DNA of 64,000 nt, taken from positions 16,956,589-17,020,588 of the forward strand of contig CP154954.1 in assembly GCA_039621445.1 (NCBI GenBank), written 5' to 3'. Below are positions 17,261 through 46,907 of the stretch, piece by piece. Both the position numbers and the translations under genes were made by a program. This DNA is from Euglena gracilis. Taxonomy: Eukaryota. Below the pieces are notes generated by a model, which searched no databases, had not been told where the DNA came from, and worked only from the letters and a program-made list of their open reading frames with translations. Every line of letters starts with the position of its first letter. Position 1 is the first letter of the stretch.

Positions 17261-17386
17261 CTACTCCAGGCTGTGCGATGCAGCGGCAACGGTGTGCCGC
17301 TGCCGTAAGGTTTCCGGCGCGGGGCCCAGTGGCGCGTTCGACACCGTTCCATCCGCCGACTGGGTAGCCGGGGGCGGGGGGACACC
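17261..17386 (-). CDS. CLPTM1: CLPTM1-like last coding exon (GVPPPPATQ...ETLRQRHTVAAASHSLE*)
   Basis: In frame after an intron whose ends pair (CAGCCCCCC with GGGGGGGCTG, +4/-6 register); ends in TAG. The sequence is low-complexity, so the call rests on junction geometry. Confidence 0.7.
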   Translation of the reverse strand, partial: GVPPPPATQSADGTVSNAPLGPAPETLRQRHTVAAASHSLE

Positions 17387-44300: not shown

Positions 44301-46907
44301 AGGGTTTTACAGAATTAATGGAAAGTTCTGCAGAATGGTTAAGGTGTTGCAAAAAAATTGGCGCCTCCGCTAGCAAATTCCCCCCCCCACACACATGGGG
44401 GTGCTTCCAAGGGAGATGGCAAAGTGGATGAGTTTTTGGATGCGCCTGGAGAGAGGGGAGGGGGCTGCGCCCCCCCCCGGACCCCCCACCTCCCCCTCCC
44501 TCCAAATAACAGTCAACAAGCCTCTTTCAGACGTATTTTTGTGCCCTATTACAGACACAACATTTCACAGCGATTCCGAACATGCAAAAAAGGAACAAGA
44601 AAAATTTGTTCAGGTTTACCCACCCCCCCCCACAAAGGCAAGAAAACGGGGCGCAATTTTTGCAATATATGGGTTTTTCGTCTGTTCTTAGCAGATTCTT
44701 TATTCGTTCCATTCCGGGAAGAAATGTGATCAATTTTGATTCATCATTGTGGTCCAATTCAAAAGTTCGCTTTTGAAAATTATGTGGAGCCAAGAAGGAT
44801 CTGTGAGAAAAAAATTTTGTTCGCATACGATTCCAGGGCCAATAGGAAAAATTTGGGACGCATGATTTTGTTGTAAAGCTAACTTGCATCACTTGTGTGA
44901 AAACAATTTTTCGAGGGGCAATAAAACAAACCAAATTTACTATGTGAAATGGCAGAATTTTTCATTTTCTCTCAAGCAAAGCCAAGCCGACATACCTCCA
45001 TCAGAAGCTAGAATGGGAATAATGAATTGAAAGAAATACCCTTGGTACCCGAGAAATGCCTGGATGGATGATCCTCTTCTCATCCGCGGCAGCCAACTCC
45101 GTCCCCTGCTGCGCAACGAAGATGTGCATCCAGAGTGACCCGTTTGCCAGGGCTGCACGGGAGGGCCAGCTGGGGGTCGCCCCCCCCCCCTATCTCTGGA
45201 AAAAAAACAGTTTGCAAATTGCCCCACCCCACCCAAAAAAACAATGGATCATGTGATCCTCACAAAAGCAAAATTGCGCACTCAGAATGGCATCACCATT
45301 TGCATTTTGTGCTTTCGCCGTTCACAACAGCACAACCTAATGTTTTGTGTGCATTTGTCACCCGGGAGGTGGGGGTCGGAACCCCCCTTCCTCTAGGGTC
45401 CCCACCACCACCACAAGAAATGCCGTTCAGCCCTGCCCGTTACCCGCCAAGTACTCATCCACAGGGACCTCCAGCTGGTGGGTGTGCTGCGCCTGGTCCT
45501 GTGCGGAGTCGAAGACGACCACATCACGCCAGACATGCAGGTTTGGGTCACCGAAGTCGACGGCCGTCCAGTTCGGGTCTCGTTTTAAGAAGAGCTGGAC
45601 GTCCAATGACGGCAGAGCGGTGCGGCAAGAGTTACCCCCCAAACAGGAGCGTGCAGGGAAAAAACCCGGGGAGTCCAGCCAGCCGGCTGGGAAAAGGTGC
45701 TGCCTGGAAGGGGAAAAAGTGAAAGCTAGCTGGACCTCTCCCCCACGGGTCGGCTCCCCTCTGGCTTAAGAAAACCCCTGCCCCCAAAACCCAAGACTTT
45801 TGGCAGGCGAGGTGGGACGTTCGCAACACGAGCTCGCATCACAAGGTCCTTGTGTTTGCAAAAGTCATGCAAAAGTCGTGCATAAGTCTTTGCAAATTTT
45901 TTTCTGCACACTGGTTATGCAAAGTTGAACGTCCCCATTTTTACGTTTCTTTGGAAGTCATTTCCGCTGGAAGACGTGGAAGACGCAAACGGAGATGCCT
46001 GCAGCTTGGGGCTTCGGTGTAATTTCCTTCCGAAAACAAGGAAGCAAGACCCAGGAGGAGGAGGAAACATTTTGCCAAATCATATCCAACAGAAACTTAG
46101 AATATCCAGAATGAATTTCAAATTATCAAGAATAAACCTGAAAAAGTTTTTTTTTTTGCAGCCTGCCCCAGCCCCCCCACCGACCCCACAACCTCTGACC
46201 GGGGGGGGGGGGGTGTTCACGCACCCCCTGACCTGCAGGCTGACGCATTCCCCCCCTGCTCAAATGGTTTCTTTGCTTGGAACACTGGATTGGTTTGTTG
46301 CAGAGGAATGGACCATCTAACCTCTCAAAAAATTTGGCCTTTGATTTGATGAAAATTTAGGGTCACAACTTTTATTTTTTTAACAAAGCATTTTGTGGCA
46401 TGCAGCCTGGGAGAACCGTGGAAAGGAATGGTATCATTTGATGACTGTTGACACCCCCTTCCCTTGGGAAAAAATGCACAAAAATGCGCAAATATGCGCA
46501 AAAGATGCCAAAAAAATAAGCCAAATGTACAAAGTCTGGGAGAAAGTGCAGATTCAAAAAAAAATGCAAAAATTACCCAAAACACACGCAAAAAAATGGC
46601 ACCAAATGTATAACAATCATATGGAATTCTGATGAAAGTTTCAGTTTCGAAAAAAATGCAAAAAAATTGGGAGAACCACGAAAAAAATGCGCCAAAAAGC
46701 AAGAAAATGAGCTGAAAAAAAACTACAAAAAATGCGCGAAAAAATGCGAAAAAAAATGCGAAACGACTTCCCTCCCCTTTATTGAGCTGAAATGTGAACA
46801 CCAGCCTGACTGAGGCACCCTTCGCAAATAATGGTTCATACTCTCGTTGAACCGGTGATGGCTGGTGATTTGGGTTGTAGCGGCGTTCTCCAGCAGGTTC
46901 CTTTCTT
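17261..46907 (-). CDS. CLPTM1: CLPTM1-family multi-pass ER membrane protein; 17 exons, 5' end unresolved
   Basis: Joined exons 46907-46812, 45607-45439, 45141-45066, 43674-43637, 41634-41509, 39986-39867, 38272-38168, 37512-37462, 35816-35790, 34662-34570, 30709-30583, 29650-29542, 29383-29276, 26077-25944, 25588-25469, 24763-24711, 17386-17261 keep phase at every junction. Family motifs appear in the expected order: NGSLWMHIF, HWKPTL, YPVLYVNEFW, TNPWLL, FLAFKNDIQFWK, LYLLDNETS, TKEYDDIA, FGFIMMTPQLFINYKMKSVAHLPWR, YKALNTFIDDLFAFIIKMPTMHRLSCFRDD, YQRWIYPVDVSRVNEFG. CLPTM1 vs CLPTM1L orthology not resolved. Confidence 0.93.
17438..21912. mobile_element. Tc1/mariner-type non-autonomous element (TA TSD) with a 16-bp subterminal array; hosts the next element
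   Basis: TA|CAGTCTGGACAAAATGATGGGAAA...TTTCCCGTCATTTTTGTCCGGACTG|TA; (GATGGGAAACAAAAAC)n at 17452-17541. Confidence 0.8.
17627..21687. mobile_element. 4.06-kb TIR element with 5-bp TSD (GATAT) and about 12 dispersed AATGCGCA-NN-TGCGCATT palindromes
   Basis: 26-bp TIR CTTAGACGGCCGGGAATGCACTTTTC perfectly inverted at 21662-21687; GATAT on both sides. Confidence 0.88.
22162..24338. mobile_element. hAT-like non-autonomous element with 8-bp TSD TTCATGGC and (GGCCATTTTC)n subterminal arrays
   Basis: 14-bp TIR CAAGCACCTATAGT/ACTATAGGTGCTTG; perfect 8-bp TSD. Confidence 0.9.
22950..23360 (+). repeat. Degenerate 18-bp minisatellite (CATCTTGTCCAGCATCTG)n
   Basis: Roughly 20 degenerate tandem units. 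Confidence 0.9.
24711..24763 (-). CDS. CLPTM1: CLPTM1-like exon (YPVDVSRVNEFGQRGDAS)
   Basis: YxVDxxRxNEFG motif; both flanks nonconventional. Confidence 0.92.
25469..25588 (-). CDS. CLPTM1: CLPTM1-like exon (ALNTFIDDLFAF...YQRWI)
   Basis: Signature family motif; AG acceptor, nonconventional donor. Confidence 0.96.
25944..26077 (-). CDS. CLPTM1: CLPTM1-like exon (YSFVLN...TPQLFINYKMKSVAHLPWRTFVYK)
   Basis: Signature family motif; AG acceptor, GCGTGC donor. Confidence 0.96.
26920..27025. repeat. Short interstitial telomere-like repeats (TTAGGG, then CCCTAA)
   Basis: TAGGGTTAGGGTTA...TTAGGGTTAGGGTTAGG at 26920-26954; TAACCCTAACCCT near 27013-27025. Confidence 0.6.
27420..28903 (-). mobile_element. 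1.48-kb DNA transposon with 7-bp TSD GCACCAG, (CGTGATTTTT)n arrays and a CGGBP1-like transposase relic
   Basis: 23-bp TIR CAGGGATTCCCTC(T/A)GTTTCGTGC; perfect 7-bp TSD. Confidence 0.9.
28058..28480 (-). pseudogene. Frameshifted CGGBP1-like (zf-BED plus Hermes-type DNA-binding domain) transposase N-terminus
   Basis: YPGVFEVRGSEMWCIACHTPVNY.../GHLASATHRKK (C2H2 BED-like) and ITDDFVASFLQTGIPVNKLDHPSIRGLIEKY, resembling the CGGBP1 IPLEKxDHP segment (recalled similarity, not searched). Confidence 0.72.
29276..29383 (-). CDS. CLPTM1: CLPTM1-like exon (TKEYDDIA...YSLLYQKHKGW)
   Basis: TKxYD and YSLxYxxHKGW motifs; GT donor. Confidence 0.95.
29542..29650 (-). CDS. CLPTM1: CLPTM1-like exon (GVLIEAWKVSK...EDRESYASE)
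   Basis: IExWK motif; AG acceptor; nonconventional donor. Confidence 0.9.
30583..30709 (-). CDS. CLPTM1: CLPTM1-like exon (GKKDMRGLS...LDNETSGVILVSCGI)
   Basis: AG acceptor, GTGTGC donor; GLSxxS and LYLLDNET motifs. Confidence 0.95.
30759..31506. mobile_element. Probable MITE with (GGTGGGATCC)n subterminal arrays
   Basis: Imperfect TIR CAAGGACAGTCA/TGGCTATCCTTG; decamer arrays at 30790-30825 and 31343-31497; no clear TSD. Confidence 0.55.
34570..34662 (-). CDS. CLPTM1: CLPTM1-like exon (NPWLLGLT...AFKNDIQFWK)
   Basis: Conserved FLAFKNDIQFW; GCATGT donor. Confidence 0.95.
35790..35816 (-). CDS. CLPTM1: CLPTM1-like micro-exon (EVKKMLMDT)
   Basis: 27 nt; TTGCAG acceptor; joins to give DT|NPW. 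Confidence 0.85.
37462..37512 (-). CDS. CLPTM1: CLPTM1-like exon (EQTFQQQAAMGLGGAHE)
   Basis: 51 nt; upstream intron ends pair (CGACCCGGC with GCCGGGTTG); GT donor; fills the expected gap in the protein. Confidence 0.75.
38168..38272 (-). CDS. CLPTM1: CLPTM1-like exon (EHLVEVNAS...KWQMLVAL)
   Basis: AG acceptor; LPLxIS and KWQ motifs; nonconventional donor. Confidence 0.9.
39867..39986 (-). CDS. CLPTM1: CLPTM1-like exon (DFNFYRP...YPVLYVNEFWQLN)
   Basis: AG/GT boundaries; YPxxYxNxFW motif. Confidence 0.92.
40405..41321 (+). repeat. Compound microsatellite (GT)n/(GTGCT)n/(GCGCT)n/(GTGTT)n, intronic
   Basis: Directly visible; lies in GT-AG intron 39987-41508. Confidence 0.97.
41509..41634 (-). 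CDS. CLPTM1: CLPTM1-like exon (AAAATRHLFG...PHWKPTLSFALVE)
   Basis: CAG| acceptor, |GTGCCC donor; HWxPxL motif. Confidence 0.88.
43637..43674 (-). CDS. CLPTM1: CLPTM1-like small exon (HAVHPLVKFLPKQ)
   Basis: 38 nt; upstream intron ends GCCTGTCTAC|, pairing with |ATCCAGGC; downstream donor GAGTGT. Confidence 0.7.
45066..45141 (-). CDS. CLPTM1: CLPTM1-like exon (GSLWMHIFVAQQG...KRII)
   Basis: Completes the NGSLxxHxF family motif; 76 nt. Confidence 0.85.
45439..45607 (-). CDS. CLPTM1: CLPTM1-like exon (LDVQLFL...DEYLAGN)
   Basis: 169 nt, in phase; both flanking introns nonconventional. Confidence 0.8.
46812..46907 (-). CDS. CLPTM1: CLPTM1-like exon (RKEPAGE...EPLFAKGAS)
   Basis: Joins in frame to give PLFAKGASLDVQLFL across a nonconventional junction (TC|AGTCAG...CTGCCGTC|A). 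Upstream boundary uncertain by a few nt. Confidence 0.65.

Follow-up and report, generated by a model that had tools for sequence, protein, structure and literature searches.

A 64,000-nucleotide (nt) stretch of the Euglena gracilis genome (assembly GCA_039621445.1, contig CP154954.1, positions 16,956,589 to 17,020,588), which we call the window and number from its first letter, carries a gene of the CLPTM1 family on its minus strand between positions 47691 and 17261. This is very probably (at roughly 85%, by our estimate) an intact gene with a pre-mRNA of about 30.4 kb that is handled by two splicing systems, as is normal for Euglena gracilis. The evidence comes from intron junctions enumerated against a transcript-derived protein and from terminal helices found in a fixed register. 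Literature is cited by PMC number.

Gene structure and protein support

The exon coordinates of a first-pass annotation, made by reading the window without database searches, translate into CLPTM1-like peptides. One of these exons, 44 amino acids (aa) long (25945-26076, minus strand), was used to search a protein collection for longer proteins, 1523 of the 1529 candidates matching at E <= 0.001. The best full-length match, to which this exon is 100% identical, is EukProt EG_transcript_7062 (579 aa; P0003 below). The name follows the scheme of "EG_transcript_1495" in PMC6366073, that is, the one used for the Euglena gracilis transcriptome by Ebenezer et al. 2019. Derived as it is from a transcriptome assembled de novo, P0003 counts as cDNA-type evidence that owes nothing to genome annotation, known here as a protein alone. 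It scores 412.2 bits against Pfam CLPTM1 (PF05602; cut-off 22, E = 3.4e-123) and so belongs to the family, which the exon-bearing open reading frames (ORFs) of the window match likewise.

Searched with tblastn against the window, P0003 gives 18 collinear minus-strand matches running from 47691 to 17264. The gene they define, copy A, starts with an ATG at 47691-47689 and has a stop codon that ends at 17261; its coding sequence (CDS), joined in silico from exons of 27-169 nt, has 1740 nt (579 codons and the stop), no internal stop, and 571 of 579 residues identical to P0003 (98.6%). The copy-A-specific codons are N75, H96, M167, N411, T546, S548, A574 and L578, four of the eight differences falling in the last exon, the most diverged part. 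Directly ahead of the ATG, a pyrimidine-rich stretch (47692-47712, minus strand) has an AG three bases before the start codon, ttctttacttgcag^ttgATG, which by its sequence context would be a plausible spliced-leader (SL) trans-splice acceptor.

A read-through ORF on another ENA genomic contig (P0004) is similar only to the exon that introns 14 and 15 enclose, and the similarity stops at both exon boundaries; this suggests that the positions of these two conventional introns may be shared with a related genome or a paralogue. Our literature search returned no description of EG_transcript_7062 or of this gene, the supplementary datasets of PMC12501133, which possibly list these introns, lying outside the search; for CLPTM1 together with Euglena it returned only unrelated work.

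The gene and its introns are listed below (^, exon border; hyphens, limits of the helix; energies are those of the end chimera described further on).

17261..47691, minus strand: CLPTM1-family gene, copy A, 18 exons and 17 introns, from tblastn and the in-silico CDS
46889..47610, minus strand: intron 1, nonconventional, 722 nt, AGG-CAGGT...ACCTG-CTGGA^g
45608..46811, minus strand: intron 2, nonconventional, 1204 nt, AGT-CAGG...TCTG-CCGTC^a
45142..45438, minus strand: intron 3, nonconventional, 297 nt, GGG-CAGGGCTG...CAGCCCTG-GCAAAC^g, 6-nt 3' spacer
43675..45065, minus strand: intron 4, nonconventional, 1391 nt, ATC-CAGGC...GCCTG-TCTAC^a
41635..43636, minus strand: intron 5, GA-AG, 2002 nt, cag^GAGTGTG...TTTATTTTTGTTGCTGTTTACGTTGCACAG^g
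39987..41508, minus strand: intron 6, GT-AG, 1522 nt, 0.0 kcal/mol
38273..39866, minus strand: intron 7, GT-AG (GTGTG...GGCAG), 1594 nt, 0.0 kcal/mol
37512..38166, minus strand: intron 8, nonconventional, off the published code, 655 nt, GGC-CGACCCGGC...GCCGGGTTG-ATCCG^a
35817..37461, minus strand: intron 9, GT-AG, 1645 nt, -1.4 kcal/mol
34663..35789, minus strand: intron 10, GT...CC (intermediate/nonconventional), 1127 nt, c^GTTT-CAAGG...CCTTG-CACCC^a, 4-nt 5' spacer
30710..34569, minus strand: intron 11, GC-AG, 3860 nt, -2.8 kcal/mol
29651..30582, minus strand: intron 12, GT-AG (GTGTG...), 932 nt, from junction enumeration
29384..29541, minus strand: intron 13, nonconventional, 158 nt, GCA-CAGGGCT...AGCCCTG-GGCTC^g, 7-bp helix
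26078..29275, minus strand: intron 14, GT-AG, 3198 nt, from junction enumeration
25589..25943, minus strand: intron 15, GC-AG, 355 nt, from junction enumeration
24764..25468, minus strand: intron 16, nonconventional, off the published code, 705 nt, t^GCC-TGGGC...GCCCG-ACCGC^a
17387..24710, minus strand: intron 17, nonconventional, 7324 nt, AAA-CAGCCCCCCC...GGGGGGGCTG-GCCAC^g, 10-bp helix

Ten introns without a GT-AG or GC-AG solution

The junctions were enumerated one by one: of the donor/acceptor pairs lying within ±18 nt, all those that give back the junction peptide of P0003 were collected. All 17 junctions were solved with 0 mismatches, each in 1-9 ways that are equivalent in protein. The mRNA-equivalent positions number 1-7 per junction, and 16 of the 17 introns are slidable through direct repeats of 1-6 nt, the sole exception being intron 16 with its single possible junction, GC...GC. 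The tally is five GT-AG, two GC-AG, one GA-AG, one GT...CC and eight clearly nonconventional introns. No GT-AG or GC-AG solution exists within the enumerated range for 10 of the 17 (introns 1, 2, 3, 4, 5, 8, 10, 13, 16 and 17); such ends are thus absent at any message-compatible position from introns 1, 2, 3, 4, 8, 10, 13, 16 and 17, and formally from intron 5.

In an alignment of 12 proteins (P0003 and 11 homologues), junctions 6-16 lie in gap-free blocks, with no residues added or lost relative to the homologues, and junctions 7, 8, 10, 11, 12, 14, 15 and 16 fall within strongly conserved motifs: WQMLVAL^EQTF for intron 8, MDT^NPWLLG for intron 10 and YLYQRWI^YPVD for intron 16. Junctions 1-5 and 17 are in variable regions and draw their support from P0003 alone.

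The first-pass annotation fares well at the level of coordinates. All 14 introns that it placed are among the enumerated solutions and are compatible with P0003, its five GT-AG and two GC-AG introns stand exactly as listed, and the GA-AG and intermediate introns that it counted without locating are those at 41635-43636 and 34663-35789. The nearby GT/AG sites that it had named as an alternative do not, within the ±18 nt enumerated, reproduce the junction peptide of any of the ten introns. Its gene start, 46907, is inside intron 1, the supposed first exon beginning at 46888 and the true ATG lying at 47691. Its statement that half of the introns lack canonical ends holds in that the noncanonical majority is real, but the count is 10 of 17 and not 9 of 16, as intron 1 (46889-47610) had been missed. 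Its borders for intron 8 (37513-38167) are mRNA-equivalent to ours, but only 37512-38166 fits the +4/-6 register.

Terminal helices in a fixed register

The register test leaves 3 nt unpaired at the 5' end of the intron and 5 or 6 at the 3' end, trying every allowed slide position. Pairing of +4..+6 with -8..-6 is present in 8 of 8 nonconventional introns (in intron 3 by way of the 6-nt 3' spacer) and absent from introns 10 and 5. The uninterrupted helices of introns 1, 2, 3, 4, 8, 13, 16 and 17 are 5, 4, 8, 5, 9, 7, 5 and 10 base pairs (bp) long, against 1, 1, 1, 5, 4, 2 and 3 bp in the same register of the seven GT/GC-AG introns. With a null of 40,000 pseudo-introns per option count, taken from the same strand of the gene, the per-intron P values are 0.001-0.24 and Fisher's combined P is 9e-8. 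The first base of the downstream exon is a purine in every case: G, A, G, A, A, G, A and G for the eight nonconventional introns, and A for intron 10.

Two of the helices include one G-U pair (introns 2 and 8), and in intron 16 the first pair is U-G. The pairing of intron 8 (CGA/TTG) is in register only for the borders given above. In intron 3 a 6-nt direct repeat, AACGGG, produces seven equivalent positions.

Folding energies were obtained with the published end chimera (10 nt + U7 + 10 nt), refolded here. The eight nonconventional introns range from -3.4 (intron 2) to -9.2 kcal/mol (introns 4 and 16), with intron 1 at -8.8 kcal/mol; the seven conventional ones give 0, 0, -1.4, -2.8, -2.3, -5.7 and -0.8 kcal/mol, and of 5000 pseudo-introns, 33.5% have an energy of 0 and 6.9% one of -6 kcal/mol or lower. 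These energies are within the ranges published for E. gracilis, where nonconventional introns fall mostly between -10 and -2 and 35% of GT-AG introns are at 0 (PMC11170887). When whole introns are folded, the minimum free energy (MFE) and centroid structures of intron 13 both pair the ends (z = -2.51; 2 of 200 shuffles fold as well); the ends of intron 3 also pair, with z only -1.14, while the centroid of intron 15, the control, has no end-to-end pairing (z = -0.08). In a control on 30-nt end duplexes, mismatched ends of different introns pair nearly as strongly as matched ones (mean -15.3 kcal/mol), because the shared CAG/CTG and a genome rich in C/G runs contaminate the mismatched pairs. The register-specific helix test was therefore preferred.

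Introns 6, 7, 9, 11, 12, 14 and 15 have U2-type features: GT/GC...AG ends, a pyrimidine-rich 3' end and little terminal pairing. The exonic base at -1 is G in six of the seven, and introns 7 and 12 begin with GTGTG, the conventional 5' consensus of E. gracilis (PMC11170887). Conventional introns of this alga also have a C-rich pyrimidine tract. Two GC-AG introns in seven exceeds the genome average (659 GC-AG against 11,527 GT-AG, PMC11170887), on small numbers.

Fit to the published splicing code

From knock-in mutagenesis, Nomura et al. 2025 (PMC12501133) derived the code 5'-N3CDG/CH'GN5-6^R for nonconventional introns, with a 5' spacer of exactly 3 nt, a 3' spacer of 5 nt (a sixth being tolerated) and an obligatory purine at the start of the next exon. 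Splicing also requires pairing past the triplet and is lost on single changes to CAG or CTG; compensatory swaps at the second position mostly fail (PMC12501133). Six of the ten noncanonical introns here (1, 2, 3, 4, 13 and 17), all with CAG/CTG, satisfy this code at exactly one equivalent position each (one of three for intron 1, one of four for intron 2). The resulting 60% is comparable to E. agilis, where 61.2% of nonconventional introns follow the code and 38.8% fall outside it (PMC12501133); failure of the code therefore does not exclude an intron from the nonconventional class.

Intron 3 offers a natural comparison, as the gene is partly duplicated (copy B, below). Its 3' spacer is GCAAAC (6 nt) in copy A and GCAAC (5 nt) in copy B (4207-4505), the counterpart in nature of the tolerated +1 mutant of the 3' spacer in the 2025 knock-in study (PMC12501133). 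In a second helix of the same intron two C-to-T changes between the copies replace C-G by U-G and G-C by G-U, with pairing kept.

Alternative explanations

The 5' part of the gene recurs at the left edge of the window:

590..6732, minus strand: copy B, exons 1-6 (aa 1-189), ATG at 6732, continuing off the left window edge, from tblastn and alignment

The duplication relates 2-14280 to 40180-54772 (about 96% identical, period about 41 kb) and takes in exons 1-6 with about 7.5 kb upstream. Introns 1-5 of copy B have the same ends as those of copy A and are 92.9-98.5% identical to them.

Several observations weigh against an intact copy A served by two splicing systems. The junction evidence is at the protein level and comes from a transcript that differs from copy A at 8 of 579 residues. 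In the region common to both copies, P0003 matches copy B at 188 of 189 residues and copy A at 186 of 189, and the transcript may have come from copy B or from an allele. Junction 17 is supported by P0003 alone, the C-terminal tail not being conserved in the homologues. In the 30-nt duplex control, introns 2, 4 and 16 do not stand out from the mismatched pairs. Four noncanonical introns do not fit the published code, namely intron 8 (CGA/TTG), intron 16 (TGG/CCG), intron 10 (CAA/TTG, shifted) and intron 5; and intron 10 needs a 5' spacer of 4 nt, although in the knock-in assay function was lost when this spacer was lengthened by +1 (PMC12501133).

If copy A were silent, or a product of the assembly (an allelic contig set in tandem, say), the other copy would be the source of the transcript, and the map of introns given here would be that of a template left unspliced in vivo. 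The duplication itself and the closeness of P0003 to copy B fit this proposal, as does a gap of 13 N at 14960-14972, close to the duplication edge, and some contribution of the assembly to the duplication is conceivable given that gap. We nevertheless consider a silent or artefactual copy A unlikely: its frame is open over 579 codons in 18 exons and 98.6% identical to P0003, its splice signals are all intact, with the ends of introns 1-5 the same as in copy B bar the 1-nt difference in the intron 3 spacer, and the end of the copy B sequence matches the middle of the other block, unlike a simple overlap misjoin.

That some or all of the off-code introns (5, 8, 10 and 16) are spliceosomal, removed through noncanonical sites, is in our view quite improbable for the set as a whole. 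Intron 10 does begin with GT, and introns 13 and 16 with GC. However, the last two bases of introns 8, 10 and 16 are CG, CC and GC, without AG or a pyrimidine tract leading up to one; these introns have terminal helices of 9, 5 (plus 3) and 5 bp and a purine after the 3' cut, and the termini of introns 10 and 16 follow the nonconventional Y^R...Y^R pattern (PMC4770533). The same source counts GT-initial introns with the nonconventional hairpin as nonconventional, the 5' G reflecting a purine preference, and only 33 of its 55 introns have CAG/CTG.

For intron 5 alone, spliceosomal removal is the favoured reading. None of its six equivalent positions gives GT/GC-AG ends or fits the nonconventional code; its 5' site looks conventional bar the A at +2, with exonic G at -1, G at +1, +3 and +5 and T at +4, and a long pyrimidine tract ends in CAG. 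End pairing is weak (30-nt duplex -7.5, end chimera -4.1 kcal/mol). Over 70 nt at either end the intron does not differ between the copies, both of which have GA, and the nearest GT, by reading of the sequence, would yield GT...GC ends and Glu in place of Ala148. Intron 5 is thus most likely a spliceosomal intron with A at +2 that is conventional at every other position. No relevant literature on GA-AG introns in Euglena was found among titles and abstract openings.

Intron 10 is most likely nonconventional. Its 5-bp helix is extended by three further pairs (30-nt duplex -25.4, end chimera -6.0 kcal/mol), and the 5' spacer is 4 nt for every junction that keeps Asn291, a residue present in 11 of the 12 aligned proteins including P0003. 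There is a residual chance of 3/6-nt spacing in copy A, which would encode Asp, found in one homologue. The intron resembles the intermediate/nonconventional subtype of Milanowski et al. 2016 (PMC4770533) in its 5' GT, its non-AG 3' end, its stable terminal helix and its Y^R...Y^R termini; introns 13 and 16 come near the subtype in beginning with GC. It differs in that +5/+6 always pair with -7/-8 in the 55 introns of that study, while the helix of intron 10 begins at +5 and not at +4.

The AT-AC termini of intron 4 are coincidental. U12-type introns have an extended ATATCC-like 5' splice site and a branch-site box near the 3' end; the start of intron 4, ATCCAGGCAT, and its end, ...GATAGCCTGTCTAC, fail these motifs, and the nonconventional code fits instead, with a 5-bp helix.

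Finally, the noncanonical junctions might be products of the alignment, with true splicing at GT/GC-AG sites close by or around tiny exons, so that every intron would be canonical. This is very improbable and already largely refuted: slidability by 1-6 nt in 16 of 17 introns does mean that exact cuts are not fixed by the mRNA, and the evidence is at the protein level, but the exhaustive enumeration within ±18 nt found no such pair for ten introns, intron 16 has its single junction inside the invariant RWI^YPVD, junctions 6-16 have no missing or extra residues against 11 homologues, and the ends carry the register-specific helix expected of nonconventional introns.

Foldback element and target-site duplications

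The two duplicated blocks differ by an insertion:

10402..11352: foldback element, 951 bp, present only in the copy B block and absent at the homologous site 52538/52539 beside copy A

This intergenic element has arms of 458 nt that are 96% complementary, ends that read CAGGTTGCC...GGCAACCTG, and a duplicated TA on its flanks. The termini are the CAGG/CCTG motif of nonconventional introns, and the flanks would fit N3-CAG/CTG-N5^G. Within the window the 20-nt end occurs only at the element's own two ends, and its 9-nt core at one further site (58302).

An origin from MITEs, transposable elements of the miniature inverted-repeat kind, has been hypothesized for such introns (PMC11282704, PMC12501133). 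The locus resembles that picture in its terminal inverted repeats and in junction repeats that look like target-site duplications, for example AACGGG at intron 3, but neither a transposase nor a multi-copy family is demonstrated here. The foldback, the sole clean insertion polymorphism in the window, has a TA duplication and not a junction-spanning 8-nt repeat. By analogy, its termini may be said to agree with the hypothesis in spirit.

A model in which N3 and N5 make up a duplicated 8-mer was tried and set aside. In this test the five final nt of the exon were matched to the five final nt of the intron, and the three opening nt of the intron to those of the following exon. Nonconventional introns score 1-6 of 8 and conventional ones 3-7 of 8, so that the test does not discriminate; conventional introns score high because of the AG^G consensus. 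By eye, intron 3 of copy B fits the model at 7 of 8.

Repeats and other sequences in the window

Introns 3 and 13 have in common the terminal inverted repeat CAGGGCT/AGCCCTG and a 3' end similar over about 48 nt. A stretch resembling this 3' end is found at 38382-38412 in conventional intron 7, adjoining an internal 95-nt inverted repeat (38422-38516 / 39668-39762). A single family for introns 3 and 13 was rejected: their local alignment score of 16.0 exceeds the maximum of 14.0 from 2000 mononucleotide shuffles, yet intron 7 scores 16.5 against intron 3. The similarity may arise in part from low complexity in G/C runs.

Intron 6 contains an imperfect (GT)n microsatellite of roughly 1 kb (40403-41372; (AC)n in the pre-mRNA), to which the 40-42 kb bin owes its strong GC/AT skew. 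An open frame in intron 4 (44530-44961, minus strand) has a sub-threshold match to the DNA-binding domain of Hermes (hAT) transposase (17.5 bits against 20.5, E = 0.0034) and could be a decayed transposon or a chance match. Of the 114 ORFs in the window with 130 aa or more, a Pfam scan covered 108, the six inside the microsatellite being left out; it showed no nested or transposase genes in the introns, the matches within the gene being the CLPTM1 exons and the sub-threshold Hermes frame. An Rfam scan of the whole window at the gathering threshold gave 0 matches.

To the right of the gene, the C-terminal end of a 405-codon open frame (62439-63653, plus strand) matches Pfam Dam (DNA N6-adenine methyltransferase, PF05869; 32.6 bits, cut-off 28.1), and the frame may be an exon of a neighbouring gene. 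A 513-nt inverted repeat (59734-60246 / 61495-62007; 98% complementary, arms 1248 nt apart) may be a transposon with long terminal inverted repeats.

Discussion

In the scheme that we propose, seven introns (five GT-AG and two GC-AG) are conventional U2-type introns, which intron 5 most likely joins as a +2 variant. In the nonconventional introns the terminal helix, whose first pairs are +4..+6 with -8..-6, would bring the two junctions together, and a machinery not yet named would cut the RNA 3 nt before the helix begins and 5-6 nt after it ends, ahead of a purine. The junction positions (at the protein level), the helix register and the purine rule are observed at this locus; copy A, to judge from its sequence, is presumably expressed. 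Nonconventional introns reportedly leave as full-length circles, and this release, like their removal after the conventional introns and the need for particular sequence and structure, enters our scheme from the literature. The order of removal is described in PMC6221363.

Nonconventional introns of euglenids (those of tubA, tubB, gapC and hsp90, and the genome-wide sets of E. gracilis and E. agilis) are like the ones here in helix register, in spacers of 3 nt and 5-6 nt and in the downstream purine. They are also alike in CAG/CTG (6 of 8 here), in ends other than GT/GC-AG, in junctions made slidable by short direct repeats, and in having conventional neighbours in the same gene. Introns 8 (CGA/TTG) and 16 (TGG/CCG) hold the register and differ in motif. 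Intron 17, with 7324 nt, exceeds the 5931 nt of the longest nonconventional intron in the 2024 draft-genome set (PMC11170887 Table 1), which comes from a fragmented assembly.

The first-pass annotation had described +4..+6/-8..-6 pairing as characteristic of euglenids, in line with PMC4770533 and with our register test, and introns with such pairing are indeed mixed with spliceosomal ones in this gene; it had called the excision machinery not known, as PMC12501133 and PMC4770533 also do. Its five intron classes were split too finely, since there are two mechanisms and borderline cases, GT-AG and GC-AG being treated as one conventional type (PMC11170887; PMC12501133). As for its suggestion that structure matters more than sequence, stems other than CAG/CTG are indeed natural and documented, but single CAG/CTG changes abolish splicing and swaps mostly fail (PMC12501133). 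The suggestion is thus only partly borne out, the knock-in results pointing to limits on sequence as well as on pairing.

With 10 noncanonical introns in 17 (59%), the gene is at the genome average: of 28,337 E. gracilis introns, 11,527 are GT-AG, 659 GC-AG and 16,151, or 57%, nonconventional (PMC11170887 Table 1). In E. agilis 71.8% of introns are nonconventional and 84.4% slidable, and many genes have both types (PMC12501133). The +4..+6/-8..-6 pairing, stems other than CAG/CTG and the placing of GT-initial intermediate introns in the nonconventional class have been on record since 2014-2016 (PMC4770533). The mixture is thus ordinary for E. gracilis, its cis-elements are already explained in the literature, and its significance beyond annotation is small; the remaining interest is in the four off-code introns and the foldback polymorphism. 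The locus is a fully resolved example of both splicing systems on one transcript, useful for training aligners without a GT-AG prior, and introns 8, 10 and 16, the spacer variant of intron 3 and the GA-AG intron are ready test substrates for study of the excision machinery. It is possible, though we hold it doubtful, that the off-code introns 16, 8 and 10 are true nonconventional substrates that break the code and that the 951-bp CAGG...CCTG foldback is a recently mobile relative of intron-seeding elements. Should the off-code introns prove genuine substrates, the machinery would read helix geometry and the downstream purine rather than the letters of CAG/CTG.

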